This document shows positions 29,843-52,801 of a stretch of DNA of 64,000 bases, in pieces. The first letter of the stretch is position 1. Each line of letters opens with the position of its first letter. A program made the translations under genes and the position numbers. The notes below the pieces were generated by a model. It was not told the origin of the DNA. It did no database searches and worked only from the letters and a program-made list of their open reading frames with translations. The stretch is taken from the IMG/VR virus record IMGVR_UViG_2657245091_000008; one strand, given 5' to 3'. This DNA is from a virus (lineage: Duplodnaviria; Heunggongvirae; Uroviricota; Caudoviricetes).

Positions 29843-30499
29843 TTACTCCACTACAAACCAGTCACATGCCAGTAAATCAGCAACAGACGGCAACCAAACG
29901 TTGTCTATATTTTGCGCATCCTTCAATACAAAATGGTCGCCATAAGGAACCTGAATGTCGTGGAAATTGACGCACCCAGCTAGAACTAACCAGCAGCATT
30001 GCTTTTCGCCTTTCCACCCGCGTCGAGATACCTTTCTTCCTTCTTTCAACCACGTCAGCGCGACAGAAAAGTCGGCTGCTTCAAGGTCGATTTCTTCTTG
30101 TTGGGTAGTGATACCACCAGCAGAAATAGTTACGTCCCTGGCTGTAATGAATGTCACCCCATTGTGACCTTCAATCCTGAGCGATACCCCATTTTCGAAG
30201 ATGTCGTTAGTTCGACTAAAGCCATCTTTAAATTTCTTTTCTGATAAACAGGACAGATGACCTTCTTCATCAACGACAAGATAGCCGCCAACTTGTGGTA
30301 GGTGTTTTTGCAAAAACATTGCATCAACATAGATTCTTACTCCTTTGGGTTCTGTGACCTCGATTTCACCACAATTAGGCATCACAGGAGTAATACCACC
30401 GATGTATTTGATATTCTTGATTTTCGATGCACTAACGTTTTTGTGAGCTTTGTATTTGGGAAGGAACTTAAAAAGCTCTTTCGTTGCCATGTTATTCAT
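29843..30499 (-). CDS. Hypothetical protein with C-terminal DUF2829 (Tad2-like) domain
   Basis: C-terminus ALTWLKEGRKVSRRGWKGEK...VWLPSVADLLACDWFVVE fits the DUF2829 pattern as I recall it. Confidence 0.5.
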   Translation of the reverse strand: MNNMATKELFKFLPKYKAHKNVSASKIKNIKYIGGITPVMPNCGEIEVTEPKGVRIYVDAMFLQKHLPQVGGYLVVDEEGHLSCLSEKKFKDGFSRTNDIFENGVSLRIEGHNGVTFITARDVTISAGGITTQQEEIDLEAADFSVALTWLKEGRKVSRRGWKGEKQCCWLVLAGCVNFHDIQVPYGDHFVLKDAQNIDNVWLPSVADLLACDWFVVE

Positions 30500-30513
30500 A
30501 GTCTTTTCTCTGC

Positions 30514-31008
30514 TTATAACTTTTCGTACTGAAGCGGTGAACGCTTAATTTCAAAGTGGCCTTCCGATGTGCTACCAAAGCCACCAGCACCACGTTCCGT
30601 TTCGTTGAGTTCCTCAACCTCGACTAGTGAGACTTGTTCAACACGCTCAAAAATGCCTTGCATGACAGCCATTCCAGGCTTGAGACAAACGCCTTCCCCG
30701 CCGGGATCAGTAATCAGTTTTGCCATGATTTCACCGCGATAATCGGAGTCGATAATTCCTACGCAGTTAGCCAGGCGAGTATGTTTTTTGCAGCCCAATC
30801 CGGATCGCGGATAGAGTTTCAGACACCAGCCGGGCGGGATCTCCATAGCCAGTCCGGTATACACCCACCAGCTTGAGGAAATTGCACCATTGCTATCGAC
30901 GCATGGTTTTATTTCAACAGCCTCAAAATCCATCGCCGCCGATCCGGAGGTGGCATAAGCTGGAAGTTTTGCTGCCGGATGTAGGCGTTTCACTTTTACG
31001 TAAATCAT
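30514..31008 (-). CDS. dut: dUTP diphosphatase (trimeric dUTPase)
   Basis: dUTPase motifs: GSAAMD, PRSG, GIIDSDYRGEI, RGAGGFGST. Confidence 0.8.
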   Translation of the reverse strand: MIYVKVKRLHPAAKLPAYATSGSAAMDFEAVEIKPCVDSNGAISSSWWVYTGLAMEIPPGWCLKLYPRSGLGCKKHTRLANCVGIIDSDYRGEIMAKLITDPGGEGVCLKPGMAVMQGIFERVEQVSLVEVEELNETERGAGGFGSTSEGHFEIKRSPLQYEKL

Positions 31009-31481
31009 TGTTTTTTAGCTCTCTGCGTGAAGGTGTAAACCCGACGTTTGATATGTGGAACGGTAGGAACAGGAAGACAGGAACTTTCAATAACTCCTTG
31101 CTCCTCCAGCGATCGCACCGCCCGCAAGAACTGCGACGTGTCGCCGCCAAACTGGCGGGCATAGGTGCTGCCGTTATGAAGTATTTGAGCTATTACCCGA
31201 GCTTTTGTCTGGCTGACACGATATGCGAATAGCCGCACGGCCTCTTCTGGCGCAATCGCTAACTGATAGCCTTTCCCGGCACGGTGTCGAATGAATCCAT
31301 GCGCCAGTAGGTTTTTGAGTTCGTTACGAGTGCGAACAGATCCGTAATCCAGGAAGTGTGGATTGATAACGACTGGCTTAAACCATTCCGTAGGTGCTTT
31401 AGCTAATAGAGCTAACAGCTTCCCGGATAATTCTGGATAGGAAGACGGGTAACAATTCAGAGATGGGTAATAAGTTTTCAC
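31005..31481 (-). CDS. Hypothetical protein
   Basis: 158-aa ORF, overlapping stop/start in operon. Confidence 0.5.
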   Translation of the reverse strand: MKTYYPSLNCYPSSYPELSGKLLALLAKAPTEWFKPVVINPHFLDYGSVRTRNELKNLLAHGFIRHRAGKGYQLAIAPEEAVRLFAYRVSQTKARVIAQILHNGSTYARQFGGDTSQFLRAVRSLEEQGVIESSCLPVPTVPHIKRRVYTFTQRAKKQ

Positions 31482-31822
31482 CGACGCCCCCTTGCAGGAT
31501 ATCGACCTGCATTAGTATCCGGTGCAATAAAGCCGGTAGTGGGGCGAGTGAAAGCGAGATTAATCTTCTCGACCATAGTGCGATAATTTTCCTGATAGTG
31601 GGCCAGGAGTTTTTCGGCGGCAATGATGGTTACTTTCCGGACGTAGCTTTCTGCTTCCTCCAGATTTCGCCAGTTTTTTTCGAGGGTAAACACAGGGACG
31701 GCCTCAAGCCCGGTCATGATGCCGAACACAACGACAGCATGACTGTTCTTAACACCAGCGGCGAAGGTTACGGTGTAACCATCCACCTTGAAGCGTCTTG
31801 ATTCCGTGATTTGACTCTGCAA
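31478..31822 (-). CDS. Hypothetical protein (first gene of operon)
   Basis: 114-aa ORF; operator-like motif about 55 bp upstream. Confidence 0.5.
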   Translation of the reverse strand: MQSQITESRRFKVDGYTVTFAAGVKNSHAVVVFGIMTGLEAVPVFTLEKNWRNLEEAESYVRKVTIIAAEKLLAHYQENYRTMVEKINLAFTRPTTGFIAPDTNAGRYPARGRR

Positions 31823-31876
31823 AGCACCCTCCTAAATAGGCGAGGGTACTTTACAGCAAAGGCGTTAATCTAAAAA

Positions 31877-31897
31877 GATGTGTTAGAAATTTAATTT
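31877..31897. promoter_or_regulatory. Operator-like motif upstream of the 31822-to-27943 operon
   Basis: GATGTGTTAGAAATTTAATTT. Confidence 0.45.
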
Positions 31898-32924
31898 ACG
31901 AATCCATCAGGCGGCTATTAGCCCCCACAGACACGCCGCCACGGCGAAGATACCGCATAAGTGTTTCCGGTTTCTTCCAGGTTCCTTCCTGCATGATCTC
32001 CACCATAGACACCTGCTTTTCAGCCATATCAATAGCGGCCCCGACGCGTGCACTATGCCCGGTCCACGTCCGGTATCTTCCTTTGTTTGGCGTAGCATCT
32101 CTTTTATTCAGCAACACCCAGGCGTCGCTGAATATTTTCTCCATTGCAGGTGCAGTAAGGGGTGTTGTCGTGATCCTGGCCTTATTGCTACGGTGTATCG
32201 GCGGGAACAGCACTGCGTCAGGATGTTCGCGAAGCCCGGAAACATCCAGCCAGTCATTCAGCACAGCGGTAGTGCGACGGGAAAGCACCTTATCAAGCCC
32301 GGCGGCGGTCGTTATTGTCTTCGTGTGTGAAATATGTAGCGTGACAGTGTCACCTGTTTGATCCAGATCTCCTACACGAATACGCGAGATTTCCGACATA
32401 CGCATCAGCGTATTGTATGCAACAAAGAGAAAAGCCCGGTTGCGCAGGTCCACCAGCCGTTCTGACCTGGACAACAGGACGTCGAGCAGTTTCAGATCGT
32501 CCCACCGAAGCGGTATAGCCTGGCCTGTTCGTTCGCCTTTTTCAGTTGCCGCTTCGCGCCGGATGCGCCGCATAGCCAGAGAAACACTTTTATCATCCGA
32601 AAGTGGCGGAAGACCACAATGCGAAAGCAGCATGTTCAGCATGGCGTAGTGCTTATCAATGGTGGTCGAAGCCAGATCGGCATCATGCAGCTGAAGAAAA
32701 TACTCGCGGGCCATTTCTGGTGAGATCGGAAACCAGGCAAGCTGGCGAGCGTGACACCAGCGCGCCCAGGAATGAAACACCAACCGGAGGTCGCGCAGAG
32801 TATTCGGCGCATAAGCCCCCTGGTCATTCATGAACCGCATAAAGTTTTCTGCGGCTTCCTGGTACTCTTTGCCAATGTTGCGCAGAAAACCACCGGAACT
32901 GCCAGAGATAATTAATTCACTCAT
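31896..32924 (-). CDS. cre: Cre-like tyrosine site-specific recombinase
   Basis: Collinear similarity to P1 Cre (SWARWCHARQLAWFPISPE, VSLAMRRIRRE, AYNTLMRMSEISRIRVGDL, WTGHSARVGAAIDMA); R-H-R-Y-type catalytic residues present; divergent, not identical. Confidence 0.85.
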   Translation of the reverse strand: MSELIISGSSGGFLRNIGKEYQEAAENFMRFMNDQGAYAPNTLRDLRLVFHSWARWCHARQLAWFPISPEMAREYFLQLHDADLASTTIDKHYAMLNMLLSHCGLPPLSDDKSVSLAMRRIRREAATEKGERTGQAIPLRWDDLKLLDVLLSRSERLVDLRNRAFLFVAYNTLMRMSEISRIRVGDLDQTGDTVTLHISHTKTITTAAGLDKVLSRRTTAVLNDWLDVSGLREHPDAVLFPPIHRSNKARITTTPLTAPAMEKIFSDAWVLLNKRDATPNKGRYRTWTGHSARVGAAIDMAEKQVSMVEIMQEGTWKKPETLMRYLRRGGVSVGANSRLMDS

Positions 32925-33076
32925 GAAACTATTTGACCTCTATATACAGATGACGCTACGCGAAAAATATAAAAATGACAGGGTAGCTATAAGTTAATTT
33001 TCAAAATACAAGCCTTTGATTCGAGGCACGTATTTTCAGTGATGTCAACACTGTTCATCTACACATGATTATAGCC

Positions 33077-33108
33077 TAACTTTAAATAATGCCAATTATT
33101 TAAAGTTA
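33077..33108. other. lox-like recombination site candidate
   Basis: TAACTTTAAATAAT-GCCA-ATTATTTAAAGTTA, perfect 14-bp inverted arms (or 12-bp arms with 8-bp spacer ATGCCAAT); arms share TAACTT and ATA with loxP arm ATAACTTCGTATA; about 150 bp upstream of cre-like start. Confidence 0.5.
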
Positions 33109-33285
33109 CAGAATGGCGATTTTTTTTAATCCATCATAGATTGATTTTGACCAGTAACACGTTGCCTTCATGGTCTTTAATTTGCGAAGTGTGGTTTATA
33201 CAGTTGGTTTTCTAAAATTGATGACAAAAAATCACAGTTCGATCCTTTACTCACTCTGTTATTCGACATAAATTTGTCATAGTAA

Positions 33286-33307
33286 TTTTATGTTAGAAAA
33301 CTAAATC
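33286..33307. promoter_or_regulatory. Operator-like motif upstream of 33319 gene
   Basis: TTTTATGTTAGAAAACTAAATC. Confidence 0.45.
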
Positions 33308-33318
33308 GAGTAGGAATA

Positions 33319-34356
33319 ATGAGTAAGAAGTCGATCGAGAAAGAGTACAAACGGTTCCTGCAAACCGCTGAACGGTGGAAAGAGCTGGTGGTCGCAAACT
33401 CTGTTTTCCATGATACCAGTTATGCTGGCGAGGAATTCCGCCATGTTGCATTAACGCATGACCAAAACATATTAGAAGAAGCTGAAAAATGTCTTGCTGA
33501 ATGGAAAGCCTTCGTTGACATGTGCCGCGATGCCGACGGCAAAGCGTCGAACATTGTTGAGTCTGTATATTCTCCGATCCCATTCATCATTGAGGACACC
33601 AATCAAAGCACGCATGTTGTTGTGCAAAGCGCTACAACAACACGTACATTTACACGTGAACAATTGCTCAAAAAATACGACAAAATCATAAAGAAAAGCC
33701 TGAAAAATAGGGTTTTTTCTCAAATTGTAGGTGCTCTTGAAGAAGAACAGCGCTTCTTTGAAGCTGAGCCTGAAGGCGAGATCTACCGGGCGCGTAAAGA
33801 GGCATATACAGATGTTGTGCTGACAACAAACATCGAAGGCAGCAATGCCCTTTCTCGCTTTAGAGTTGGCGCACATGGCGCATTGGTTTTCGCAAGACTA
33901 CCGAAGACAACGATCCCCGTTGTCAATAATGTTGGTGAACGCCGGAGCATTACAATTTATTCAGGCGTCGAATCGGTACCTTGCAGCCTTCTCGGCGATT
34001 TTAACTTATATCGTGTTCGTGACCTGGAAAAACACCAGCCAAGCTACGTTGCGAAGTCGTACATCTTAAGGAACATCGATATTCGCAATGAAAGCCTTAA
34101 GCAGAAATCCGCTAAGATGCTGGAGGATGCCGATCCGGCTATTCGCCATATCATTGAGCGTAAGATACGTACATCACGTGAAGCAATGGCAAGGCTGGAT
34201 AAAATGGATCTGGAATTGTTAGACGTAATGATGGCCTCTGGAGACGACCTGACCGGCATTAAACTGAATGAAGCTCGTAAAAAATACGGCAAAGCAATCG
34301 AAGAACGTTACGGATACACATTCCCCCAAACGCAGTACGCCGCGAAGCTCTGGTAA
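33319..34356 (+). CDS. Hypothetical protein occupying the c1-like position (convergent with pacB)
   Basis: 345-aa ORF; operator-like motif overlaps its promoter region; no HTH recognised. Confidence 0.5.
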   Translation: MSKKSIEKEYKRFLQTAERWKELVVANSVFHDTSYAGEEFRHVALTHDQNILEEAEKCLAEWKAFVDMCRDADGKASNIVESVYSPIPFIIEDTNQSTHVVVQSATTTRTFTREQLLKKYDKIIKKSLKNRVFSQIVGALEEEQRFFEAEPEGEIYRARKEAYTDVVLTTNIEGSNALSRFRVGAHGALVFARLPKTTIPVVNNVGERRSITIYSGVESVPCSLLGDFNLYRVRDLEKHQPSYVAKSYILRNIDIRNESLKQKSAKMLEDADPAIRHIIERKIRTSREAMARLDKMDLELLDVMMASGDDLTGIKLNEARKKYGKAIEERYGYTFPQTQYAAKLW

Positions 34357-34364
34357 TCACAACC

Positions 34365-34390
34365 GGCCCCGCATCGCGGGGCTTTATATA
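34365..34390 (+). terminator. Intrinsic terminator after 33319-34356
   Basis: GGCCCCGC-ATC-GCGGGGC followed by TTTATATAT. Confidence 0.5.
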
Positions 34391-35892
34391 TCCAGATCTG
34401 GCATTTCGATATCCGCCAGAACCTGATCTCGGAAAGTTGCCATTTCGGCACCAATATCTTCATTAGCAGGCACATAGTCCACCAGCATAGTGAAGCAGTA
34501 GGTATCCCATCGGTCAGGCGATTTGATGTTTAGCTTTTGCCGCATGTGCTCTTTGCGCATCATCGCCATTTTCCCTTCCTCATTCAGTAAAAAGGGGATT
34601 TTTGACGCTTGCTCTGCCGTTTTAGGGTCACTGTCTATCCGCATACGCCCTGACTTTATGGCATCACGCGCCATAATATTTGCGTAGGCACGCTGATTAA
34701 CAAATCGCTCCCTGTCTTTGTTCGCAAACATGGGTTTTCCCCACCGAATACGTACCGGGTTCGCACCACGACGCACCAACTGCGCACACGTATCAGAACC
34801 AAAACCATCGGCATCAACCGCGATTGTTATATTCGGGTATTTTTCCGGCGTACATTCGTTATATATAAAGTCAGCAAAGGCCAATGGGTCCATAGTGCCA
34901 GGCATCTCCATTACCTTAAAGTTAACAACGCGCCGCTTATCCCTGTGACCAGATACCTTGCAGATGTTGAGGACCGACTTATCTCGCCCATTACCAACGT
35001 CAGCCGTTGCCACCCATCCCCAGTTTTTCTCCAACAACACCTTGCGGCGAGCAGCGCGATCGCATTCATCACGACCAAGCAAATAGCCGTTAATTTCTCG
35101 TGGGAACTGACCAAGCACCTTGACCATATACTCAATAGAATCGCGCCCACCATATTCCAGAAGCTTCTGCTTGATGAATTGTGGTGTGACGAACGGTGAT
35201 TCTTCCGAGTTAAGAACAATTGCTGTCCAGATCCCTTTCGGGTTGTCTGGGGTTTTTGCTTGAGAATGGTGCGAATCGTAGAAATAACCACTTGGCCTTG
35301 TTGGCTGGGATAGCATCAACATCCGGTTATCTTCTTCAGTAAGAGCACCGGTCATTACGCCGATCGCCTTATCAGATATACCAGATGCTTCATCCAGAAT
35401 TAGAAGCAAATGTGCCGCGTGTTCCCCCGCCAGCGCTTCTTCGTTGCCGAGTCGATAACCTTTGCAGAGAACTTCCCAAATCCCCTTACGGGAGCGCTCA
35501 TAAAACATGGTGTCAGAGAGGACAAAATAGGTCTGCAACCACCCATGACGCTTAACTGCATTCGCCCAATACTGTTTAACGTATTTGAATACGCCTGTTT
35601 TTACCTGGCCTATCTTGTTAGCAACAATGATGACACGGGCATCGGGGAACAGGATCATAAAAATCAACAGCAACATCGCGGTAAGGGACGACTTCCCCGT
35701 TCCGTGTCCGGACGTGACGGTCGTCCTACTCCCCGTTTCCTGCACTGACTGAATGATCTGCTGCTGCTGGTGGGAGGGGAACATCCCAAAAATATCGACA
35801 ACAGCCTGGGTAAAGTTGTAGCGGTATTTGATTACCATATCGCGCCAGCGTGGATCGCTGGTGACGCATTTAATCTTGCGCCCGCCAGCCAT
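34384..35892 (-). CDS. pacB: Terminase large subunit (PacB-like)
   Basis: 502 aa; Walker A VTSGHGTGKSS, Walker B LLLILDEAS, C-terminal acidic nuclease-like residues; directly follows pacA-like gene. Confidence 0.8.
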   Translation of the reverse strand: MAGGRKIKCVTSDPRWRDMVIKYRYNFTQAVVDIFGMFPSHQQQQIIQSVQETGSRTTVTSGHGTGKSSLTAMLLLIFMILFPDARVIIVANKIGQVKTGVFKYVKQYWANAVKRHGWLQTYFVLSDTMFYERSRKGIWEVLCKGYRLGNEEALAGEHAAHLLLILDEASGISDKAIGVMTGALTEEDNRMLMLSQPTRPSGYFYDSHHSQAKTPDNPKGIWTAIVLNSEESPFVTPQFIKQKLLEYGGRDSIEYMVKVLGQFPREINGYLLGRDECDRAARRKVLLEKNWGWVATADVGNGRDKSVLNICKVSGHRDKRRVVNFKVMEMPGTMDPLAFADFIYNECTPEKYPNITIAVDADGFGSDTCAQLVRRGANPVRIRWGKPMFANKDRERFVNQRAYANIMARDAIKSGRMRIDSDPKTAEQASKIPFLLNEEGKMAMMRKEHMRQKLNIKSPDRWDTYCFTMLVDYVPANEDIGAEMATFRDQVLADIEMPDLDI

Positions 35893-37740: not shown

Positions 37741-37753
37741 TAAACACCTAATG

Positions 37754-38146
37754 CTACCAGCGAGACAAACGAACAACATGTTTCACTTTTGCGATCCACT
37801 TTCCGCGATAACTATTGATTACGGCCTGTGCCAGCTTCAAATTGGCTTCAAAATCAGCCTTACTACCATCAGACTCCACCAGCATTCCTCCATCTATTTC
37901 TGGTAAACATAGATAATCCTGCTCAACCTGCAGCGGCATTGATGGCTCTCTGAATGGCGTTACTTGCTCTGCTTTCCAGCGAAATCTAACCCTCATCCCC
38001 CTGGTGGTCATTACTAGATAGCCTGTTATAGTGCTTTTATGGCCCACATCAGTACGCGTGGCATTGCATGACACGATCTTACAGTTAGCGATAGACCACT
38101 CCATATTGGTGGCCTGTTGAGTGCTTAATTTGGTAGTCCCGTACAT
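37754..38146 (-). CDS. Hypothetical protein
   Basis: 130-aa ORF, ATGA overlap with upstream gene. Confidence 0.45.
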   Translation of the reverse strand: MYGTTKLSTQQATNMEWSIANCKIVSCNATRTDVGHKSTITGYLVMTTRGMRVRFRWKAEQVTPFREPSMPLQVEQDYLCLPEIDGGMLVESDGSKADFEANLKLAQAVINSYRGKWIAKVKHVVRLSRW

Positions 38147-38721
38147 CAGAAAGCCTCCCAGTCAGTCGCGATAATATCCACACCAGTTGCAAACCAGTCT
38201 GTCTGCGCCTGTAAATCCCCATTCATCATTACCAGGCGAGGCATCACCATCACATCGCACCCTTCCACAATATCGAATGCCTCTTCCGGCAAGAATTCGA
38301 AGAGCTTTTCTTTGCTGCCAATGCTGCCACGGAACATCGATATATAGCTCCCTTTAGGCCATGATGTCCGCCGGGCATCAAGCCCTTTCATCATCCAGTA
38401 AAAAGCCGAGGAAAAAGGGATATTCTTTTTGCCAATGATTACATTATTCGCTTCTGTGTACTTCAGGAACTTAACTAACCTTACCATTGACTCGGATAAC
38501 GCAACGTATGGCTCATGATTGATTGCTGACACGCTTACACCGTGCAATCCAACGCTTACCACTGTCATATCGCCGCTCTGTGCGGTTTCGATATTGACGC
38601 CTTTGCGAACTAATGAGGCGTAAAGTTCCTCTCGCTTTTGGGTCCAGCGTTCCCGCTTCCCTATGAAGTCACTCAAAATGAGATCTTCTTCTGCATATGC
38701 GTTATCGTTCGCCATTAACAT
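38146..38721 (-). CDS. Hypothetical protein with C-terminal DUF2829 (Tad2-like) domain
   Basis: C-terminus FYWMMKGLDARRTSWPKGSYISM...MPRLVMMNGDLQAQTDWFATGVDIIATDWEAF fits the DUF2829 pattern. Confidence 0.45.
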   Translation of the reverse strand: MLMANDNAYAEEDLILSDFIGKRERWTQKREELYASLVRKGVNIETAQSGDMTVVSVGLHGVSVSAINHEPYVALSESMVRLVKFLKYTEANNVIIGKKNIPFSSAFYWMMKGLDARRTSWPKGSYISMFRGSIGSKEKLFEFLPEEAFDIVEGCDVMVMPRLVMMNGDLQAQTDWFATGVDIIATDWEAF

Positions 38722-39959: not shown

Positions 39960-40323
39960 CGTTATTGTGGCGACCGGTGCTGATCTCCGGCTTGCGGTTA
40001 TTTCAGACTCTCACGGGCGTTTAATTGCCCCGCCGAACAGCTCTTTTCCGCAATAGCTGCAATGTCTTTCGCGCATCAGCCTGCGCATTCACCACAATGT
40101 TGAGAACACTGGTTGTCACGCTGCAACGCAACATTTATTCGTAGATTGGGATATGACCCCGTTACGCCAGTGTTCTCAACGTTGTAGTGCCGGTTACGGT
40201 TCCGGCCAGGCCTCTTCCTCAACGGGGTGTTCTCCATACGGACTACCGTTTATTGGTCGTTCCTGCGGTTTATGTTGTGAAGCCAGATGCTTATCTTCTG
40301 GTTGCTTCAAAGAGCTGCACTTC

Positions 40324-40412
40324 CTCACAACGGTAAGGGTACTTCGTAGGGATTCGAACCCTCTGCCAAGCTCGGCGATCTCCGACGTCGCAAAATACCC
40401 TTACCTGTTGTG
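40324..40412 (-). pseudogene. tRNA-like remnant (acceptor, D-arm and T-arm but no anticodon arm)
   Basis: T-loop signature AGGGTTCGAATCCCT and pairing acceptor-like stem, only about 65 nt core, enclosed by a 16-bp extended stem. Confidence 0.3.
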
Positions 40413-40413
40413 C

Positions 40414-40489
40414 TGGTGCCGATTAACGGACTCGAACCGCTGACCATTCGCTTACAAAGCGACTGCTCTACCAACTGAGCTAAATCGGC
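40414..40489 (-). tRNA. tRNA-Thr (anticodon UGU)
   Basis: GCCGATTTAGCTCAGTTGGTAGAGCAGTCGCTTTGTAAGCGAATGGTCAGCGGTTCGAGTCCGTTAATCGGCACCA; canonical cloverleaf. Confidence 0.8.
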
Positions 40490-40493
40490 AATT

Positions 40494-40580
40494 TGGTGGG
40501 GAGTGATGGAGTCGAACCACCCGAGTCGCAATGACAGTAGATTTACAGTCTACCCCGCTACCCCTACGGACTAACTCCCC
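40494..40580 (-). tRNA. tRNA-Tyr-like (anticodon GUA), type II with atypical D-arm
   Basis: Acceptor GGGGAGT/ACTCCCC+ACCA, anticodon arm GTAGACTGTAAATCTAC, long variable arm, T-loop GGTTCGACTCC. Confidence 0.55.
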
Positions 40581-40585
40581 TAAAG

Positions 40586-40662
40586 TGGCGATGGTGGGTG
40601 GATTCGAACCACCGACCGACAGCTTAGAAGGCTGCTGCTCTATCCTACTGAGCTACACCATC
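40586..40662 (-). tRNA. tRNA-Arg (anticodon UCU)
   Basis: GATGGTGTAGCTCAGTAGGATAGAGCAGCAGCCTTCTAAGCTGTCGGTCGGTGGTTCGAATCCACCCACCATCGCCA; perfect acceptor, D and T stems. Confidence 0.8.
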
Positions 40663-41883
40663 ACTTGCCGGGTACGTCTCCGGCGAGGGCTTCCACCTCC
40701 GTATGCTTTTCGGCGCACCGCGCCCTGGCTGCAATTCGGTAACAGGGGATGCATAACCCTGGCTTCCAGCGTGATTAGCGCCTTCAGCATGACGGGATAT
40801 ACCCGTTACAAGAAATTCCCCCAGGATGCCATTAAGCAATGGCTGTTACGCGGGAGGGACGTAACAGGTAAGGGCGCTGACCAGAAAGACCTGACCCTTC
40901 TCATTCATCTGGTTAATCACACCAGCGCCCTTGCCTGTTATGCCTCCCCGTTCCCTAATACACAGACGGGGACACTCTGCGGTCGATTTTTTGACGGGGG
41001 ACGACTCATACCCCGTGGCGTCTGGCTTCTTAGGCCGCTACCATCATCAGATCATCGTTTGCATTTACTTTAATGGTCGGTTTCTAAACCGCCGCAAAGT
41101 CGCTAACCATGACGAAAACCCTAAAAAAGCCCACCCGAAGATGGGCAAATACGCTACATCTCACACAAGAAAGAAGCCGACTGCCTGAGCTGGATTCACT
41201 TTCAAATGCCCGCAGAAAGGGATCACAAGTCGGCTTCTTTCTTGATGCGGCACTCTCTCCGCCCGTCACCGCTCTGTCTCGGTTGTCGCGTTTGCCACGC
41301 CAGCCGTAACGAGGTTTAAAGTCTTTGCACGTTTCCATCACTCGACTGCCGTCTGTGGCTGTTCGTTGCAGCGGGGGTGCCTCCCCCTGGGGATATCCCC
41401 GGCCTTACCCCATTCTTTCAAGACACAATGCAAGGCCACATCCGCATAGGTGCATTACCGCAACATTAAGGAGACTCAGGGCAAAAGGTAACCGCCACAA
41501 AAATCCCTATGCCTCCTTAATGTTGAAGATGTGCATTGATGATTAGATGCAGCATGTACTGTTACTCTCTGCCGGACCATCATCAATGAACACCTTAAAA
41601 AGACCTTCCGTGGCTCAACATGTATTGTCGTTTACTCCGCAAAGTGCTCTCTCTGAAACCACTTTCCGCACTAAACCTGTTGAACTTTGGTCAGCTCGGT
41701 GCCAAAGCGTGCTTTTGCTTTACTATACTTTTCTAACACTTTAATTTGTTAACAGCCGGTGGGCAAACAATAACCAATAAGTGACTATCAAGCCCAGCAA
41801 GCGAAACGTGGGTGCCGCCCACCAGCAAGGAAAATTCTATGTTAAGTTATCATCACAATCAATACATTCGAATTGTGATTTTA

Positions 41884-43218: not shown

Positions 43219-43533
43219 TTACTGTGTTGCAGCCTGATAAATAAGATACGCGATAAATACAGGTACGATGGCCCATTGCAGCAATGAAAGTAGCCTCATT
43301 ACTGTTATTGGGGTAACTCCATCCACGTATTGTTTCTCTGACATTTTCCCGAACCAACTAACCGACAACAGTGCCGAGTTTTCCCCCAATTCCAGCTCTC
43401 TGAGAGCTTCACGGATTAACGGCGCTGTCACAGCCTTAACCGGTGTGCTCAACGTGATACTCCGCGTCCTCCCCGCATCGTCAGCGAACGCCAGACTCAC
43501 ATAATATTTTTTGCTCAATGTACAAACTCCCAA
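43219..43533 (-). CDS. Hypothetical small protein with C-terminal TM helix
   Basis: 104-aa ORF. Confidence 0.4.
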   Translation of the reverse strand: MGVCTLSKKYYVSLAFADDAGRTRSITLSTPVKAVTAPLIREALRELELGENSALLSVSWFGKMSEKQYVDGVTPITVMRLLSLLQWAIVPVFIAYLIYQAATQ

Positions 43534-43715
43534 TCATCAGCGCTTGCACTTTCCGGGGTTATGTGAACCTTATCGCCAGTAACAATATTGCGAGCTTCAA
43601 AACTTCCATTGATACGTTTCGAGATCTCAATACATAGAGCCTGCTGCCATGAGCGACGACGAGCGATAGCATTAGTTCCTGCAGGGATAAGTTCTGCCAC
43701 GTTAAGTAAACGCAA
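43515..43715 (-). CDS. Small DUF2829-like protein (stand-alone Tad2-like candidate)
   Basis: 66 aa; NAIARRRSWQ...ESASADDWEFVH fits the DUF2829 pattern (basic-W motif and terminal DWE). Confidence 0.35.
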   Translation of the reverse strand: MRLLNVAELIPAGTNAIARRRSWQQALCIEISKRINGSFEARNIVTGDKVHITPESASADDWEFVH

Positions 43716-45094: not shown

Positions 45095-48000
45095 TTAGGC
45101 CGCATCGGCGATTATTTTACGCAGTTCATCTACCGAGTAACGCGTAGATACCATCCATGCAGGACGGTCAAAGTTCACATCAGCAACCGGGTTTGCTTCA
45201 AAATTCCAGAAACGCCCGCCAATCTTCTTAATCGCGTCTTTGGCGTTCCGTATTGTCGAGGAACCTGGTTGGTCGGCAATGAGATAAACCGCGCCAACGT
45301 CCTCGCTGACGCTCCACCAGCGCCCGCGAACACGCGCCTTAGCGCGAATCGGCTTATCATTAACCACAATGATATAGTCATCATTCGCCGCTTCATCAGC
45401 TCTGGCTTCAGCCACTGCCGCCTGCTCTTCTCTTTTGCTTTCAGCCTGCTCAAGCCTTTCCGCGATCTCTGATTCAGTGGCCCCGCCGTTTTTCAGCGAT
45501 ACATAGTCCTGCCACGTTGCCGATTTGAGCGCATCCGGCAACTCATTCACATAGTCGCCGTCTTTCAACTCACGGGCGCGACGGGTAGCCATTTCTACCA
45601 GGCGATTAACAGAAACAGCATCAGCAAAATCGTCCTTACTAATGTATTTTTCATCAAATGCATTGATGACAGCCCCCACCTTAATCCACTGTGCTGCCGG
45701 TGATTCCAGGGGGTTATCAGCCTGAACAATGGCTAGTTTTGCTCCATCTACCCCATTATTCGCCAGCTGTTCCAATGCCGCCCATCCATCTGCATCACTG
45801 AGTGATTTATATTGCTCAAACAATGCATCGCGCCAGGCCACCAGCGCAGAACGTGTTTTTTCGATCTTCGTCTTAATTTTCGCTATCTTGACCTGATTAA
45901 ACATCCGTTCAATATCATCGATATTGCTAAAGGCTTTCATCCTGCCCTGGAATAAACGGTATGCCAGCACGGTCCTCCAGAATGATTCCAGACCTTCTCC
46001 GGACGGTTTGCGGAACAAGCTAAGAATATCTTCAGAAGTGACTTTATTAAGCGAACGACCTGACAGACCACGCCCAGCCATCCAGTTTTCGAACTCCTGG
46101 GCAACATCATCCATCGTTGCCTGTGCGCCCCATGCCTGCATTCCCTGGATGTAATCATACCCATACAATGCCTGGAGGAATCCCTCGCCGTCCACGATAT
46201 TCAGCGGGTTATCACTGGCTTGTATTTTTGCCACTTCACGCTTCAGCGCCTCGTCGTTGCCATCAGGATATATCCATCGCTCAGGTGCTATATCCGATGC
46301 TCGCCCGATTTTTTGGCCTATCACGCCATCATAGGTCGATGACAGTGCGATCTGACCATCATCTGTGCGATAAGCCCAGTATTTAATAGCTGACCCACCG
46401 CCCCATGCATTACCAGGTTTACCAGCAATAACATTCATTACCCCATTACGAATAGCATCATAGAACTGATCGCGAGTAAGTATTGTTGATAGCTGGTGGC
46501 ACTGAACACCACGCGCAGCCGTTGCGCGCGATTCAGCAACCCCCTCTTCAAAAGTTACCGCTTCAATCACAGAGTCAAACGGCAATGTAACGATTGACCC
46601 CGGTGATCGAGCGTAACGACTTGCTCTATCCAGCCAGGCGATACGGCAGATGTATTGTGCTTTTTCACCGTCAATTTTTTCCACCCGGACAATCGCTGTT
46701 GTTTCGCGATCATCAATGACTGCACGGTAATAACTACCTTTATGCAACAGGATATTCTTGTCAGTGCGCATATATTCCTGTGGGTTCTGAATAACATCGA
46801 TACTGATATCCAGCACACCAGACTTAATAGCGCGCTCCACATCACCACGAGAGCGTTTCATTATGGTATCCGCGTCTTTTGCCCTGGTGATCGCAAACCG
46901 CAGCACCCGCGCACGTTTTCTGTAGCTACTCAACTGCTCAAGCGCGTATTTTTGCCCATTCCTGTTCGTACCCGCTTTTATCAGGTCGTCAAGATTGCGC
47001 TGGTAATACTCTATCTGTTCCATCGCGCTTTTCAGTTCTGTCTCCATCATGCCGATATCTTTTCCGGCGGCGTTTGCCGCTTTCAGGTAGATATCGAGAG
47101 CATTGTTGGCCTCGCGCTGTGCTTTCAGTTTCAGACGTTCTTCACGCTCTTGCGCCTGGCGAGCCATGATTGCGCGGCGTTCTTCCGGGTTTGCCGCCAG
47201 CATAATGGCGCGTTCATCAGCATCATCCGCATCACCATTGGCGATCTCTGACATGTCGGAGGTCATCACCATCTTGATCCAGTCTTTCTTACGTTTCAGC
47301 GTATCCAGACGGAAGTCGTCGAATGTGCCTTTGCCACAATAGTAGTGAACATTGACCTTTTCTTGCGGTGAACCTACGCGCGCACCGCGCCCATTTCGTT
47401 GGTCGATACTGGCTGGCGTCCAGGGCAGTGTCAGGTGGTGGATATCGGTTGTCCCGATGTGCAGGTTAATACCTACTTCAGCCTTCTTGTTACAGATTAT
47501 GATGCGCGTGCGACCTTCGTTATAGTCGGCGGCAATACCTTCCATGCCCTCAAGGCCAGCATCATTTTTAGCGGAGAGATAATCCTCATATTGGGCAAGT
47601 TTGCTGTAGTAGGTTTCCCATGCCCCTTCTTTGTATTCACCGTTTTTGTTTGGAGTAGGTTCGGTCGGCTTATTCACCTTCTTCAGCTTGATGCCGCCAG
47701 CCTGGCTAACTGTCGTTGCATTGATAATGCCAATCTCCTGCTCCGGCATTTGCAGTGCACTGGCGATAATACGGCGCAGCTTCTGGTGCTGGGCTTTTTC
47801 ATCAATAAAGACGATCTGCTTACCGTTCTTCAGACCTTCACGAAGATTTTCGATCAGCGCGGCATACTTCGGCGGGATGGGGTGCGATACCTGCTGCATA
47901 TCAATACCGGCAGCCGCAATGGCCTTAAGTATTTCAGCTTCCAGTTCAATGCTGGCACGTATTTCAACATGCGTCGGATGTTCACTAAAAGCGGTCTTCA

Positions 48001-51000
48001 CTACCTTGCTGGTACGCGTACTGACCAGCCCGCCAGCGCCGTCTTCCTCGGCCTCATCAACATCATCTGCCACTTTACCGCCAGCTACTTTTGGCAAGGC
48101 ATCAGCAATAGCTTTTACCTGGTCTGCAAGCTCAACGGGGAACTGGAATGTAATCGCACTGGCATACAGATCCGGGTCTATAGCAACCTTGTCCATGTCA
48201 CGGATGATGGAGAAGATGAAATCATCCGGTTTGTCGTTAGTGATATGCCCGTTTTCATCGACTGTCAGCTCATCATTGCGACTTAACTCCTGAGCACGCT
48301 TACGAAGCTCTTCATAAGCAGTCTCCTGCTCCCCTGTCATCGGGATCTGCAAGGTGTTCTCAATGATGTCGGGAATTTTAACCGTTGCTCCGACATCTGC
48401 AGCAGTCTTCAGAGTGGTCCAACGATGGAAAATACCACGCAGGCCGTCAAGGTTCTGGAAGCCCACCAGCCCCTGCTTCTCTTCCACTTCCCCGGAAATT
48501 TTCTGGACCTGAACTGTGGCTGTTTTGCCAAACACACGAACGAAATCATCAGGCGTAATGATGCCCATGCGCATCCACTCTTCCTGCGGAATGACAGTAG
48601 ACAGCATGTTGAAGGCATCAATCGGACTGTTCACCAGCGGAGTTGCCGTCAGCATGACTACACCACGCCCGTTGTTGCGTTTCATCATGTACGCAGCTTT
48701 TACAGCCATGTCGCGGGCCATCTTGGATACTGCCGGGTTAGGCAAATATGCCAGTTGTCCCGCTTCACGCCCGGCATTAAAGGAGTTGCGGTAGTTATGC
48801 CCCTCGTCGGCAATCACGCTATCGAAGTTCATATCCTCAAAGTACGGGATATTCTGCTTCTTCGTTGTACCGGTATTCGCGGCCTGATCCTTAATCTTGT
48901 TCTTCTTCTGCGCATCACGGTGTTTACCGGACGCCAGGTCAAGACGCCCCATTTCCACAGCATTAAAGACAGCTTGCTGTGAGTTCTCCTCGATGGTTTT
49001 TTCTCGTAGCGGGATAGACGCGAATTGTTCTTTTGTCATGATGACCGTTCGCCAATTTGACGACGGGATCATGTTCATGCGCTGAACGATAACGGCGCTG
49101 GCGGACTCTTTCACAACATTTCTGGTAAGAGGCTGCCCGTTACTGTCGAGGCGTGGTTCGCCATTTTCATCAAGCACCGGCGCGGTCAGAATATTTCCGC
49201 TGTCATCACGAACTTCATCCAAACCGATAAACATCATATTGGCGAAGGCATCAGCACTGTAGAAACTCTGTGCCTCGTGATACCAGTTCTGATAAACCGC
49301 CTTCGGAACAACAATACACGTGCGTTTAGTGCGACCTGTTTCGAAGTTATACGCCTCAAGCGCAAGCGCGGTCGTGGTTTTACCCAGCCCGGTACCAAAT
49401 CCCATGATGCCGCGCCCATCTTCTGACAAGCGCCGAACTTCTTCATTCTGATAAGTCAGAGGAATGCGCTTTCCACTAATCCCTTCCAGGCCAAGCGGTG
49501 CGTCAGAATGCGTGAACGGAATGAAACCATTGAATGCGTCGTTATACTCGCGGGCTATCTGATCAGCCTGCGGGTGAGTGCGTAACCAGTCGTTAAAGCT
49601 AACTTCCAGTTGAGCAATTTTATCCAGGTACTCGTTAGCGTTCTGCCCACGCGGTTTAACACCGTTCAGGTAGTTTTCTAACTGGTTCAGGAAGCCGTCT
49701 TTATTGTTGGCCTTCTTGAACTCATTCCCGTTTTTGCCGTTTACGGTTCGTAGCTGATAGCCGGTAAATACACCGTCCTTACCTTCGTAATCGTCCGGAG
49801 ATACCAGAATGCCATCGACGACCTTCAGATCAGGTTCAGTGTACTTAAACTCGTCATAGCCCTGCTCTGCCAGGAACTCTTTTATCAAGCGGCGATCCAG
49901 CCAGCGGGCATTCAGATTAACGGTGACTTTATTTAGTGGCGTGAAAATACGTTTCTCTTCGATTTTCGCCAACTGACGCTCAAAGTTGGCTTTCTGCTCA
50001 CCTGTTGACGCATCACGCCAGCTCATCAGCAAAGCTGTTTTGGTTGCAATATCGCCGCTGGTGGCGCGGTCCATCGGCAGCAGGCAGCCATACCCATCAA
50101 TAGCGATATCATCAAATTTCGCCAGGTATTCAAGGGCCGCGTCGTCGTCCTCTGGCAGTTCACCAGCAAACGCCTCACGAAAGTCTCCCAGCGTTATAGG
50201 ATTAAGGGCTACATCACTGAAAAGATGTGCTATCACTTGTTCAGGACGTGTAAAGTCAATACCGGCAGCACCATCCGTTACATCAAGTCGCCCTGCCAGA
50301 AGGTCAGAAGTGGAACCATCCTGTTTCACATTGCCAGTGAACGTCATCCAGTTTTTAGCGCCAGCTTCAGCAAGCCCATTCAGCTTAATGGCGTGCGGTG
50401 GCCCATACTTCGCAACTTCTGCTGCCGCCAGGCGGGATGCATCTGCCAGTTTGTCATCAACGTTCACACCCAGGTTACGCAAATCAAGTGCCTTGTTGAT
50501 CAACTGACCTATCAGCGCACCGCGCATAACGCGCTCCCTGTCTTTTTCTCGCTGCTTGCCAGCAAAGCGAATCATTGCTGCCACTTCATCACTGACAACC
50601 GATGGATAGTCGGACGCGATCGCCGATATCTGGTCCCATGACAAAGCCAGAATCCCGTTTGTTGACTGGAACGCGATCTGCAGATCGCCAAACGTCGAAA
50701 CACCATATCGACTTACATCAAGCGCGGAGGATTTGGTTGTCGTGTCCTTAACCCATTTCAGACCATCAAACTCATGCCAGATACCGCCTACAAGGCGTTT
50801 ATCGCCCACTTTCGCGCCCTGCCATGCCTGAGTAGTTACGCCGAGCAAATCCCAATTGATGCGACTATCAAAGCGACGAGATAGCGCGGTTTTCATCGAC
50901 TCATTGGATACACGACCGTCTTTTTTCACCACCAGGGTATTGCGGAAGCTGGTACGTTCCATGTCGCCGTAAACAAATCGCTTCCCTTCGGTTGTAAACC

Positions 51001-51931
51001 ATTTTCCTTTGAGGAAGGTATCCCAAAGGACGTTTGCCGATTTGAGTGTTGAATCATCCGTGTCGGGGATCATCTCCAGGAAGGTTTCCGGGTGTTTACG
51101 CAATACCCATACGTCCACCACGGTATCTGTACCGGATTCGCTGAACGTACCAGAAGGCATACGATGTGCGCCCAAAAATTCCGCTTTACGGCTGACTTTA
51201 TCGCGCAATTTTTTATATTTCGCACCATCGGTCATGCCATTCGGCACCACCAATACGATAAGCCCACCAGGCTTAACCTTGTCGATCGTGCGCAGCACAA
51301 AGTAATTGCCAACGTTCTTCTCGTTTGCATATGCCGGATCAAGCCCGGCGACACCGGAACGCCCTTCACCAAACGGTACGTTACCAACAGCGTGATCATA
51401 CATTGCGTCTTTCGCCGCCAGCGCCTCAAACGCCCCGATATTCACATCGTCTTCCGGGTGCAAAAGCTGGTTTATTCGACCGGAAATCGGAGACAGTTCG
51501 GCGCTGGTCATTATCATGCCCTGCCGTTTTGTCTCCTGGAAAATACCTGTGCCCGCTGATGGTTCCAGTACGTGCCCGCCATCAATACCGTAGTCAGCAA
51601 ACAGATCCCATATACCTTCAGCCATAAACTGTGGCGTGTAGTATTCGTATTGGCTGCCCTCACCATCTGTCAGGCCGCCTTCACCGGTATACCCGGCAAG
51701 AATCTGACGTTGTTCGTCAGTTAATTTCGCCCCATCGAAGCCGGGCGGAAGGGAATTAAGAAGATTTACTGCGGCATTATTTGCTGCCCGGCGTGTTTTC
51801 TGAATACTGACGCCATCGGCTTTCCTGACGCCAAAGGTCGCAACAGCACGTAATTTATGCAACCGACTAACAATTTCAATCAGTTCGCCTAAGCTGGAGG
51901 CTTCACTGATTGAATGAAGTAGTTTGTCCAA
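45095..51931 (-). CDS. darB: DarB-like giant antirestriction protein (N6-adenine methyltransferase plus DExH helicase domains)
   Basis: 2278 aa; MTase motif I LEPSAGTGIF and motif IV NVPFG; helicase Walker A GFGTGLGKTT and VIADEGHNYRN; size matches P1 DarB (about 2255 aa). Confidence 0.8.
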   Translation of the reverse strand: MDKLLHSISEASSLGELIEIVSRLHKLRAVATFGVRKADGVSIQKTRRAANNAAVNLLNSLPPGFDGAKLTDEQRQILAGYTGEGGLTDGEGSQYEYYTPQFMAEGIWDLFADYGIDGGHVLEPSAGTGIFQETKRQGMIMTSAELSPISGRINQLLHPEDDVNIGAFEALAAKDAMYDHAVGNVPFGEGRSGVAGLDPAYANEKNVGNYFVLRTIDKVKPGGLIVLVVPNGMTDGAKYKKLRDKVSRKAEFLGAHRMPSGTFSESGTDTVVDVWVLRKHPETFLEMIPDTDDSTLKSANVLWDTFLKGKWFTTEGKRFVYGDMERTSFRNTLVVKKDGRVSNESMKTALSRRFDSRINWDLLGVTTQAWQGAKVGDKRLVGGIWHEFDGLKWVKDTTTKSSALDVSRYGVSTFGDLQIAFQSTNGILALSWDQISAIASDYPSVVSDEVAAMIRFAGKQREKDRERVMRGALIGQLINKALDLRNLGVNVDDKLADASRLAAAEVAKYGPPHAIKLNGLAEAGAKNWMTFTGNVKQDGSTSDLLAGRLDVTDGAAGIDFTRPEQVIAHLFSDVALNPITLGDFREAFAGELPEDDDAALEYLAKFDDIAIDGYGCLLPMDRATSGDIATKTALLMSWRDASTGEQKANFERQLAKIEEKRIFTPLNKVTVNLNARWLDRRLIKEFLAEQGYDEFKYTEPDLKVVDGILVSPDDYEGKDGVFTGYQLRTVNGKNGNEFKKANNKDGFLNQLENYLNGVKPRGQNANEYLDKIAQLEVSFNDWLRTHPQADQIAREYNDAFNGFIPFTHSDAPLGLEGISGKRIPLTYQNEEVRRLSEDGRGIMGFGTGLGKTTTALALEAYNFETGRTKRTCIVVPKAVYQNWYHEAQSFYSADAFANMMFIGLDEVRDDSGNILTAPVLDENGEPRLDSNGQPLTRNVVKESASAVIVQRMNMIPSSNWRTVIMTKEQFASIPLREKTIEENSQQAVFNAVEMGRLDLASGKHRDAQKKNKIKDQAANTGTTKKQNIPYFEDMNFDSVIADEGHNYRNSFNAGREAGQLAYLPNPAVSKMARDMAVKAAYMMKRNNGRGVVMLTATPLVNSPIDAFNMLSTVIPQEEWMRMGIITPDDFVRVFGKTATVQVQKISGEVEEKQGLVGFQNLDGLRGIFHRWTTLKTAADVGATVKIPDIIENTLQIPMTGEQETAYEELRKRAQELSRNDELTVDENGHITNDKPDDFIFSIIRDMDKVAIDPDLYASAITFQFPVELADQVKAIADALPKVAGGKVADDVDEAEEDGAGGLVSTRTSKVVKTAFSEHPTHVEIRASIELEAEILKAIAAAGIDMQQVSHPIPPKYAALIENLREGLKNGKQIVFIDEKAQHQKLRRIIASALQMPEQEIGIINATTVSQAGGIKLKKVNKPTEPTPNKNGEYKEGAWETYYSKLAQYEDYLSAKNDAGLEGMEGIAADYNEGRTRIIICNKKAEVGINLHIGTTDIHHLTLPWTPASIDQRNGRGARVGSPQEKVNVHYYCGKGTFDDFRLDTLKRKKDWIKMVMTSDMSEIANGDADDADERAIMLAANPEERRAIMARQAQEREERLKLKAQREANNALDIYLKAANAAGKDIGMMETELKSAMEQIEYYQRNLDDLIKAGTNRNGQKYALEQLSSYRKRARVLRFAITRAKDADTIMKRSRGDVERAIKSGVLDISIDVIQNPQEYMRTDKNILLHKGSYYRAVIDDRETTAIVRVEKIDGEKAQYICRIAWLDRASRYARSPGSIVTLPFDSVIEAVTFEEGVAESRATAARGVQCHQLSTILTRDQFYDAIRNGVMNVIAGKPGNAWGGGSAIKYWAYRTDDGQIALSSTYDGVIGQKIGRASDIAPERWIYPDGNDEALKREVAKIQASDNPLNIVDGEGFLQALYGYDYIQGMQAWGAQATMDDVAQEFENWMAGRGLSGRSLNKVTSEDILSLFRKPSGEGLESFWRTVLAYRLFQGRMKAFSNIDDIERMFNQVKIAKIKTKIEKTRSALVAWRDALFEQYKSLSDADGWAALEQLANNGVDGAKLAIVQADNPLESPAAQWIKVGAVINAFDEKYISKDDFADAVSVNRLVEMATRRARELKDGDYVNELPDALKSATWQDYVSLKNGGATESEIAERLEQAESKREEQAAVAEARADEAANDDYIIVVNDKPIRAKARVRGRWWSVSEDVGAVYLIADQPGSSTIRNAKDAIKKIGGRFWNFEANPVADVNFDRPAWMVSTRYSVDELRKIIADAA

Positions 51932-52082
51932 AGGATTTCCCCCTCTAAACCGTAAAAAATTCCGCTATGCGGTACGGTTGAGAGGGTATGGAGAATGTTA
52001 TTTTCAGGGGGACGATACTACCGTCAAAATCACATACTCCCCATAGTTTGCCTACTTATTAACCCATGACCGGGAGAAAAAT

Positions 52083-52568
52083 ATGGCAAACATTGAACCT
52101 CGCTGGCTAATTGAAGCCCGTAAGCACATTGGCCTGACTGAAATAAAAGGCGCTAAACACAACCCTGAAATCGTTCAGTTCTGGCGCGACATCAAGCGCG
52201 GCGGAATTAAAGACGATGAAACGCCGTGGTGCGCAGCATTTGTCGGTGCAATGCTGGAACGTGTAGGCATCCGCTCAACAAGATTTGAGTCGGCAAAATC
52301 CTATCTGGATTGGGGCGAGAAATTAGATACACCGGCATACGGATGTATCGTTGTATTTACCCGCGTAGGCGGTGGACACGTAGGCTTCGTTGTCGGACGC
52401 CGCGCCAATGGCGATCTGCTTGTCTTGGGTGGGAACCAGGGGGATGCGGTTAATATTCGCGCATTCCCAACATCAAGAGTGTCTGGCTATCGCTGGCCTG
52501 CTGGCGAACCACGCAATACCGCTCTGTTACCAGTCGGAGACGCAGCAACCTCAACTAATGAGGCATGA
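52083..52568 (+). CDS. Putative cell-wall peptidase-like protein (TIGR02594 / CHAP-NlpC-P60-like); possibly Ulx-equivalent
   Basis: 161 aa; PWCAAFVGAML and GGGHVGFVVG Cys/His signature; divergent from darB. Confidence 0.5.
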   Translation: MANIEPRWLIEARKHIGLTEIKGAKHNPEIVQFWRDIKRGGIKDDETPWCAAFVGAMLERVGIRSTRFESAKSYLDWGEKLDTPAYGCIVVFTRVGGGHVGFVVGRRANGDLLVLGGNQGDAVNIRAFPTSRVSGYRWPAGEPRNTALLPVGDAATSTNEA

Positions 52569-52592
52569 AAAAAGCCCCGGCCAGGCCGGGGC
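52567..52592 (-). terminator. Intrinsic terminator (minus strand) ending the icd/ant copy 2 operon
   Basis: On minus strand GCCCCGG-loop-CCGGGGC followed by TTTTTTC. Confidence 0.55.
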
Positions 52593-52600
52593 ATCACGCT

Positions 52601-52801
52601 TCAAGTCACGATCCAATCATTACCGACTATATCAGCCGTCGATAAATCAACTTCCCGGATCTGGAGTCCATTAATACAAAACCATCCGGTAGTAGAGTAA
52701 TTATCAGGCCAGGCCCATACACCAACACTCCATGCTTTACGGCGGCACACTTCAGCCTGTCCTTCCCTGATTTTTTTTACCGCCTGCATGATGTCCATCA
52801 C
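52601..52801 (-). CDS. Small DUF2829-like protein downstream of antirepressor copy 2
   Basis: 66 aa; VKKIREGQAEVCRRKAWSVGVW...ADIVGNDWIVT fits the DUF2829 pattern; terminator follows. Confidence 0.4.
   Translation of the reverse strand: MMDIMQAVKKIREGQAEVCRRKAWSVGVWAWPDNYSTTGWFCINGLQIREVDLSTADIVGNDWIVT

Follow-up and report, generated by a model that had tools for sequence, protein, structure and literature searches.

Tad2 proteins, which carry the DUF2829 domain and act as sponges for signaling nucleotides, are a major route by which phages evade the Thoeris, CBASS and Pycsar defenses, and the characterized ones are mostly free-standing and about 90-100 amino acids (aa) long. In type II Thoeris, the family member ModTad2 sequesters histidine-ADP-ribose (His-ADPR); it blocks Pycsar, too. 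In SPO1 Tad2 the ligand is contacted by W25, N26, W73, S76, T78 and D79 (bioRxiv 10.1101/2023.05.01.538930), and in HgmTad2 by W21, N22, W87, S90, T92 and D93 (10.1101/2023.11.15.567273). The Tad2 fold consists of alpha1 and a five-stranded antiparallel sheet with alpha3 ahead of beta5, and functional sponges are homotetramers held together by alpha1 and the alpha2/beta2 insertion. The dimer interface is made by alpha2, which lies in the insertion between strands beta2 and beta3; the same insertion houses the cyclic-dinucleotide site of HgmTad2.

Here we analyzed a 64,000-nucleotide stretch of viral DNA (IMG/VR record IMGVR_UViG_2657245091_000008), called the window below, with position 1 as its first letter. 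This 64-kb window is a D6-like, P1-family Escherichia coli phage-plasmid that is 98.5% identical to Escherichia phage D6, and its best E. coli plasmid matches reach up to 99.5% identity. The element most likely encodes five members of the DUF2829/Tad2 superfamily that fall into two classes, canonical-size domains and 66-aa mini domains (minis). We favor, with moderate confidence, a reading in which the canonical domains of ORF1 and ORF2 would be sponges, and the minis would form a subfamily linked to the antirepressor Ant rather than sponges for glycocyclic ADP-ribose (gcADPR). The open reading frames (ORFs) of this set, all on the minus strand, are the following:

29843-30499, minus strand: ORF1, 218 aa, made up of a Dec-like OB-fold, a beta-rich linker and a Tad2/DUF2829 domain (Pfam, PDB phmmer).
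29843-30094, minus strand: Tad2 domain of ORF1 (aa 136-218), with the stop codon included (pocket residues).
30188-30499, minus strand: N-terminal Dec-like OB-fold module of ORF1, aa 1-104 (five-sequence profile).
38146-38721, minus strand: ORF2 (D6 orf6), 191 aa, with a divergent C-terminal Tad2-like domain at aa 103-190, about 38149-38415 (PF11195).
43515-43715, minus strand: ORF3 (D6 orf11), a 66-aa mini (phrog_7206; hhalign to the ORF4 type).
52601-52801, minus strand: ORF4 (D6 orf17), a mini of 65 or 66 aa with a likely ATG at 52798 (phrog_7385; hhalign to Tad2).
11718-12617, minus strand: Ant copy 1 (Rha/Ant), 299 aa by frameshift, the native fusion being 308-313 aa (Phage_pRha, phrog_63, phrog_7385).
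11677-11799, minus strand: out-of-frame C-terminal half of the mini fused to Ant copy 1, ending in HWRTIRDGKIHAIDLAPEDVIAMDWIVS and a stop (ORF4-type hidden Markov model, HMM).

The original prediction, made by a model from the letters and their ORFs, started from four ORFs sharing a basic residue-W motif and a terminal DW. All four are present where it had placed them; in ORF1, ORF2, ORF3 and ORF4 the basic residue-W motif follows the N-terminal helix, and the proteins end with DW plus two to four residues (DWFVVE, DWEAF, DWEFVH and DWIVT). Chance similarity of the DW motif had been named as the result that would speak against a common family. The shared motif is not due to chance, as a DW terminus followed by one to four residues occurs in 9 of the 793 six-frame stop-to-stop segments of at least 40 aa in the window, and five of these nine belong to the DUF2829 set. 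A 166-aa ORF at 62435-62935 (minus strand) that ends in GDWDVK was considered as a further copy and rejected, since it encodes the LydB holin antagonist (PF16084, 87 bits); its DW ending is therefore a chance one, and LydB serves as a chance-match control for the motif. Six-frame and HMM scans revealed no further DUF2829 or mini copies, either in the window or elsewhere in D6, where the counterparts of ORF2, ORF3 and ORF4 (orf6, orf11 and orf17) are all annotated as hypothetical. When the copies were compared pairwise, significance was reached only by ORF4 against the Ant C-terminus (44% identity, E of about 2e-9).

Membership in the family is clearest for ORF1 and ORF2, both of which had been predicted to carry DUF2829 and both of which exceed the gathering threshold of 25 bits for PF11195 (Tad2-like, DUF2829), with 62.3 bits (E = 6.6e-17, aa 143-217) for ORF1 and 39.1 bits (E = 1.1e-9) for ORF2; of the other two ORFs put forward for this Pfam check, ORF4 stays below the threshold and ORF3 gives no match. 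ORF1 also matches solved Tad2 sponges. Searching the PDB with phmmer returned ModTad2 (9eib, E = 2.7e-10), 8v3e, SPO1 Gp34.65 (8sme, E = 4.7e-6) and, more weakly, AcrIIA7, and a profile of the ORF1 family returned ModTad2 at 7.5e-16, AcrIIA7/HgmTad2 at 1e-10 and SPO1 Tad2 at 7e-10. The ORF1 C-terminal domain is about 42% identical to ModTad2 and, since this nearest characterized relative sequesters His-ADPR, ORF1 is likely a signal sponge; ligand specificity is plastic within the Tad2 family, so the ligand of ORF1 cannot be predicted. ORF2, which among sequenced phages only D6 possesses, scores 21.4 bits against an HMM built from 15 Tad2 sequences (shuffle maximum of 7.8) and makes a plausible but weaker case for a sponge than ORF1. 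Both proteins would oligomerize and sequester host immune-signaling nucleotides of the Thoeris, Pycsar or CBASS type.

As AcrIIA7 is a DUF2829 protein and a detectable homolog, the domains could be taken for anti-CRISPRs of the AcrIIA7 kind. They could also be taken for toxins, given that the ORF1 homolog in plasmid NZ_CP031917.1 (locus 1340-1879) is labeled 'MW1434 family type I TA system toxin', a label that conflicts with its Tad2/DUF2829 identity. We find either role hardly credible. AcrIIA7 (HgmTad2) itself has been shown to be a sponge for gcADPR and cyclic dinucleotides, the Tad2 authors make the case that DUF2829 proteins counter Thoeris and not CRISPR, and a toxin role finds no support here, as an NCBIfam scan matched no model to ORF1 or to any other protein of the set.

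The N-terminal domains of both canonical proteins had been described as unknown, but one of the two, that of ORF1, is a Dec-like OB-fold. Built from five sequences, a profile of the ORF1 N-domain aligns with Dec of phage L (6e3c) over 70 residues, Dec 23-91 (E = 3.2e-5, 27.4 bits), while the single sequence gives E = 0.33. The Dec-like module is found alone in Ralstonia phage p2110, with another C-terminus in gp96 of Pseudomonas phage Dolphis, and fused to a Tad2 domain in SJ46, Ro157c2YLVW, SopranoGao and apparently also Acidovorax phage AP1, which makes the Dec-like OB-fold plus Tad2 a recurrent architecture across several phage lineages. This likeness allows for ORF1 being primarily a capsid decoration protein, with the OB-fold docking on the capsid and the Tad2-like domain displayed there, instead of a cytoplasmic sponge. 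According to two reports, the OB-fold of Dec binds capsids (PMC6449081, PMC11398494), and the homolog in Dolphis is annotated as a capsid decoration protein. Nevertheless, ORF1 and its homologs sit among early or accessory genes and outside the head module, with the order dut-ORF1-isaA here and ssb-J46_0048-isaA in SJ46, and with regulators as neighbors in SopranoGao. Moreover, D6 keeps the Tad2 domain without the OB module, and we regard a primary role in capsid decoration as very improbable. The D6 homolog, orf114 (D6 30127-30567; annotated as a DUF2829 protein), has 146 aa, a longer and different insertion, and GWNG where the window has GWKG; together with the missing OB module, this indicates that the ORF1 locus is mosaic among D6-like elements.

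The relationship of the minis to Tad2 emerges from profile-profile comparison. The ORF4 type, which comprises ORF4 and the Ant-fused domains, aligns with the 15-sequence Tad2 profile in hhalign at 89.9% (E = 1.7e-6, score 34.3) over 63 columns end to end; the reversed alignment scores 10.1, the maximum over 60 column shuffles is 16.3, and the one large gap coincides exactly with the beta2-beta3 insertion of Tad2. The ORF3 type aligns with the ORF4 type (91.5%, E = 8.4e-7, score 35.6, 60 columns) and only marginally with the Tad2 profile itself (6.8%, E = 0.0053, score 18.7 over 23 N-terminal columns, with a shuffle maximum of 16.4). The ORF4 type is thus very probably a remote relative of DUF2829, and the ORF3 type is probably one through the ORF4 type. 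The earlier assignment of the 66-aa proteins to DUF2829 survives for the ORF4 type at the level of profiles, falls below the Pfam threshold and is marginal for ORF3 when compared directly. The depth of the alignments matters here, as a shallow seven-sequence Tad2 profile gave only 0.3-9.7% in hhalign, and those available for the queries are themselves shallow, homolog searches with ORF4, ORF3 and the ORF1 C-domain having retrieved three to five close relatives each. An exhaustive HMMER search for the ORF3 family, in which R19, W23, D61 and W62 are invariant, added six more diverged relatives of 66-76 aa and otherwise spurious repeat proteins (PKD, FG-GAP), and three distant ORF3-type relatives had no match in genome or viral contigs.

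Could the 66-aa proteins be no homologs of DUF2829 at all, with R-x-x-W and the terminal DW having arisen by convergence or chance in an unrelated small SH3-like barrel? Every mini lies below the Pfam threshold, with 15.1 bits (E = 0.034) for ORF4, 10.8-12.3 bits for the intact Ant-fused domains and 11-13 bits for ORF3-family members, and single mini sequences score no better against the 15-sequence Tad2 HMM than their own shuffles. Structure prediction did not bring out the expected likeness to Tad2: the AlphaFold2 model of ORF3, with a predicted local distance difference test score (pLDDT) of 83.6, matches Tudor, PWWP and SH3-like barrels and retrieves no Tad2 from the PDB. The low direct hhalign value of the ORF3 type points the same way. 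PDB sequence searches with ORF4 and with ORF3-family profiles gave nothing or chance matches (Fc-receptor and MHC proteins). However, the ORF4-type alignment far outscores its nulls and is collinear, with its gap at a known insertion, and PF11195 alone recurs as the match for these diverged sequences, being the sole or top Pfam match over the full model for ORF4, for three of the four intact Ant-fused domains and for two ORF3-family members. When an ORF3-family HMM is run on the 793 segments, its best matches apart from self are ORF4, the Ant C-terminus and ORF2. The order of secondary-structure elements in the ORF3 model agrees with the published Tad2 topology minus alpha2, and in BFVD that model best matches A0A1L2CVD1, a DUF2829 protein of 66 aa from Pectobacterium phage CBB, although the match is weak (E = 0.015, TM 0.36). 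Taking both sides together, we consider non-homology quite improbable.

If the minis are DUF2829 relatives, as we favor, they correspond to the Tad2 core of alpha1, beta1-beta2, beta3-beta4, alpha3 and beta5 without the beta2-beta3 insertion. In line with loss of the insertion, the spacing between the first Trp and the terminal DW is 38 residues in ORF3, ORF4 and one intact Ant-fused domain and 51-77 in full-size domains. At the positions of W25, N26, W73, S76, T78 and D79 of SPO1 Tad2, the five domains read:

ORF1: W, K, W, S, A, D (GWKG...VWLPSVAD).
ORF2: W, P, W, T, V, D (SWPKG...DWFATGVD).
ORF4: W, S, V, S, A, D.
Ant C-terminal domain: W, P, I, A, E, D.
ORF3: W, Q, V, T, E, S.

The original prediction had taken all copies for nucleotide-signal sponges, that is, a battery of five, minis included, with different specificities. 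The plasticity of the family would accommodate this, as CBASS, Pycsar and Thoeris (types I, II and IV) are all among the systems that its members inhibit (10.1101/2025.08.24.671296), and short bona fide Tad2 proteins of 76 aa exist. Of the pocket residues, the ORF4 type retains the first Trp, Ser and Asp, and the place of ORF4 in an early immI-type operon would suit an anti-defense role. On the other hand, all minis lack the second Trp, present in 15 of 15 reference Tad2 domains, and the Asn of GWNG, present in 13 of 15 (the exceptions being Kc263 and ORF1); the Asp, invariant in the references, is also missing from ORF3. The minis are also without the insertion in which the alpha2 dimer interface and the cyclic-dinucleotide site reside, and obligatory fusion or adjacency to Ant would be unexpected for a free, abundant sponge. 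We therefore consider a battery of five sponges unlikely and sponge function for the minis doubtful; what we retain of the idea is ORF1 as a likely and ORF2 as a plausible sponge, these two being the only ones of the five that keep the core Trp-Trp-Asp.

The alternative that we favor for the minis draws on their genomic setting, which involves these additional features:

53505-53729, minus strand: icd-like gene at the head of cassette 2 (D6 orf19; D6 annotation).
52798-53505, minus strand: Ant copy 2 (D6 orf18), 235 aa, 71% identical to copy 1 (D6 annotation).
52574-52592, minus strand: strong intrinsic terminator closing the icd-ant-ORF4 operon, eight G-C pairs and then a T run.
12617-12832, minus strand: icd-like gene at the head of cassette 1 (D6 orf83; homologs annotated as Icd-like in four plasmids).
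11790-11792, minus strand: site of a 1-nucleotide deletion, GGG to GG (DNA alignment, column 71).

With an icd-like gene directly upstream of both Ant copies, cassette 2 has the order icd, ant, ORF4 and cassette 1 the order icd, ant::mini fusion. ORF4 probably starts at an ATG that shares bases with the ant stop codon (TGATG), downstream of a Shine-Dalgarno sequence, GGAGG. Linkage to Ant was found in 46 of 49 IMG/VR loci with an ORF4-type domain, which is fused to Ant with an intact C-terminus in 25 and lies directly after Ant in 21; the remaining three are at contig ends or rearranged. Many of these contigs have both the fused and the separate form, and all 49 loci belong to D6-like elements. 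In several IMG/VR contigs (L058-L060, L067), the N-terminal part of Ant is interrupted and the fused-mini frame measures about 122 aa from stop to stop, with the mini intact. Among 50,697 phage records, tblastn matches to ORF3 and ORF4 were found only in D6, and P1 itself is therefore without them.

A fifth copy, fused in frame to antirepressor copy 1 and decayed, had been suspected. The copy is real and fused, but the native domain is complete and disrupted by one 1-nucleotide deletion rather than by old decay. Ant copy 1 matches Phage_pRha (PF09669) with 35.9 bits (cutoff of 29.9), phrog_63 with E = 2.7e-45 and, at aa 252-280, phrog_7385. The frame at 11677-11799 ends in DVIAMDWIVS and is recognized by the ORF4-type HMM (E = 2.3e-5, or 2.6e-22 with an improved HMM), and in D6 orf82 and four related plasmids (L003-L006) an in-frame Rha/Ant fusion of 308-313 aa carries a complete 66-aa ORF4-like C-domain. 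The survival of the C-terminal half out of frame, together with the intact relatives, indicates that the fusion is native and has suffered one lesion rather than long decay. The lesion is the loss of one G near 11791 and recurs in NZ_CP031917.1 (100% identity over 301 bp); either a genuine mutation or an artifact of sequencing a homopolymer could explain it. Programmed frameshifting was considered and rejected, as the relatives are simply in frame. In NZ_CP031917.1, the darB-like ORF that is intact in the window (45095-51931, minus strand, 2278 aa) is split into about a dozen small coding sequences (16555-22874). The assembly thus seems to contain numerous indels, whether errors or mutations, and this bears on whether the Ant frameshift common to both is real. 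Downstream of the Ant::mini fusion there is a GC-rich hairpin, GCCCCGGCCTAGCCGGGGC, at 11650-11668 (minus strand), whose stem is almost the same as that of the ORF4 terminator but which lacks the T tract.

Given this strict coupling to Ant, the minis are more probably antirepressor modules than classic sponges, by guilt by association and by Rosetta-stone logic within one lineage. ORF4-type minis are an integral part of two paralogous icd-ant cassettes and would act together with the antirepressor, for which they could serve as a multimerization module or as a partner- or ligand-binding module. ORF3, whose gene lies between VRR-NUC (pmgM-like) and pmgR-like genes downstream of darB-ulx, would be a further diverged paralog of the other minis in the darB-pmg block. 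A bolder version, in which the Ant-linked mini senses a host immune or stress nucleotide and thereby gates Ant activity, is a long shot; if true, the prophage would listen to host defense signals and respond with lytic growth or altered superinfection immunity, and what was once a sponge fold would now serve as a receptor.

Several points weigh against the two-class reading that we favor. The subthreshold Pfam scores of the minis and their shuffle-level scores as single sequences count here as well, and the AlphaFold2 model of ORF4 is unusable (pLDDT of 53.6). The pocket residues retained in the ORF4 type may allow some ligand binding, and in ORF1 the change from Asn to Lys and the N-terminal fusion could alter or abolish sponge activity. 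The role of the minis with Ant is drawn from fusion and gene adjacency in a single phage lineage, and the roles of all five domains are read from sequence.

Outside the DUF2829 set, the D6 annotation places three tRNA genes, for Ser (with an 'apparent UGA anticodon'), Thr and Asn, at about 40200-40950 of the window (D6 7145-7850), and this stretch is the only part of the region that is about 90% identical to P1, P7 and RCS47.

Compared with ModTad2/MoTad2 (9eib) and the Tad2 family, the C-domain of ORF1 is of the same length class and shares alpha1, G-W-x-G, W-x-P-S-x-x-D and the terminal DW, but has Lys for the phosphate-contacting Asn, a shorter insertion and, in contrast to the mostly free-standing members, a 135-aa N-region to which it is fused. 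ORF2 is more divergent: Pro replaces the Asn, the insertion differs, and the N-domain is 100 aa long. HgmTad2/AcrIIA7 (8kbi, 9kzr) belongs to the same DUF2829 fold family as ORF1 and binds cyclic dinucleotides through a 41-residue insertion, whereas the insertion of ORF1 is short and the minis have none. In size, the minis are comparable to short phage DUF2829 proteins, namely that of CBB (66 aa) and those of Vibrio phage JSF38 and Pectobacterium phage PP99 (76 aa). However, the 76-aa proteins keep GWNG and W-V-P-S, both of which are missing in the minis, and the structural match between the CBB protein and ORF3 is weak.

In a survey of phage-plasmids, "Tad2 AcrIIA7 (anti-Thoeris)" is listed for 93% of the D6 group and 56% of the P1 group (10.1101/2025.09.12.675607), so that the canonical Tad2 copy was already known. 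Our literature search turned up nothing on the 66-aa subfamily or its fusion or coupling to Ant, on a genome with five copies, or on an architecture that combines a Dec-like OB-fold with Tad2. Since the 66-aa branch is missed by the Pfam and NCBIfam models scanned here, searches for anti-defense genes may undercount relatives of the family.

Beyond the Tad2 family, the N-domain of ORF1 aligns with the OB-fold residues 23-91 of phage L Dec (6e3c), including the GGYL...G.L.Y......F motif, and differs from Dec in having a Tad2 domain in place of the trimeric spike and in a gene position outside the head module. Both cassettes follow the icd-ant order of the P1 immI operon (c4-icd-ant), with an antirepressor of the Rha/Ant kind that, in copy 1, passes Phage_pRha and PHROG 63. 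In contrast to P1 immI, the D6-like cassettes end in a Tad2-like mini, either fused or separate, and this strict coupling to an antirepressor of the lysis-lysogeny decision suggests a use of the fold beyond sponging.

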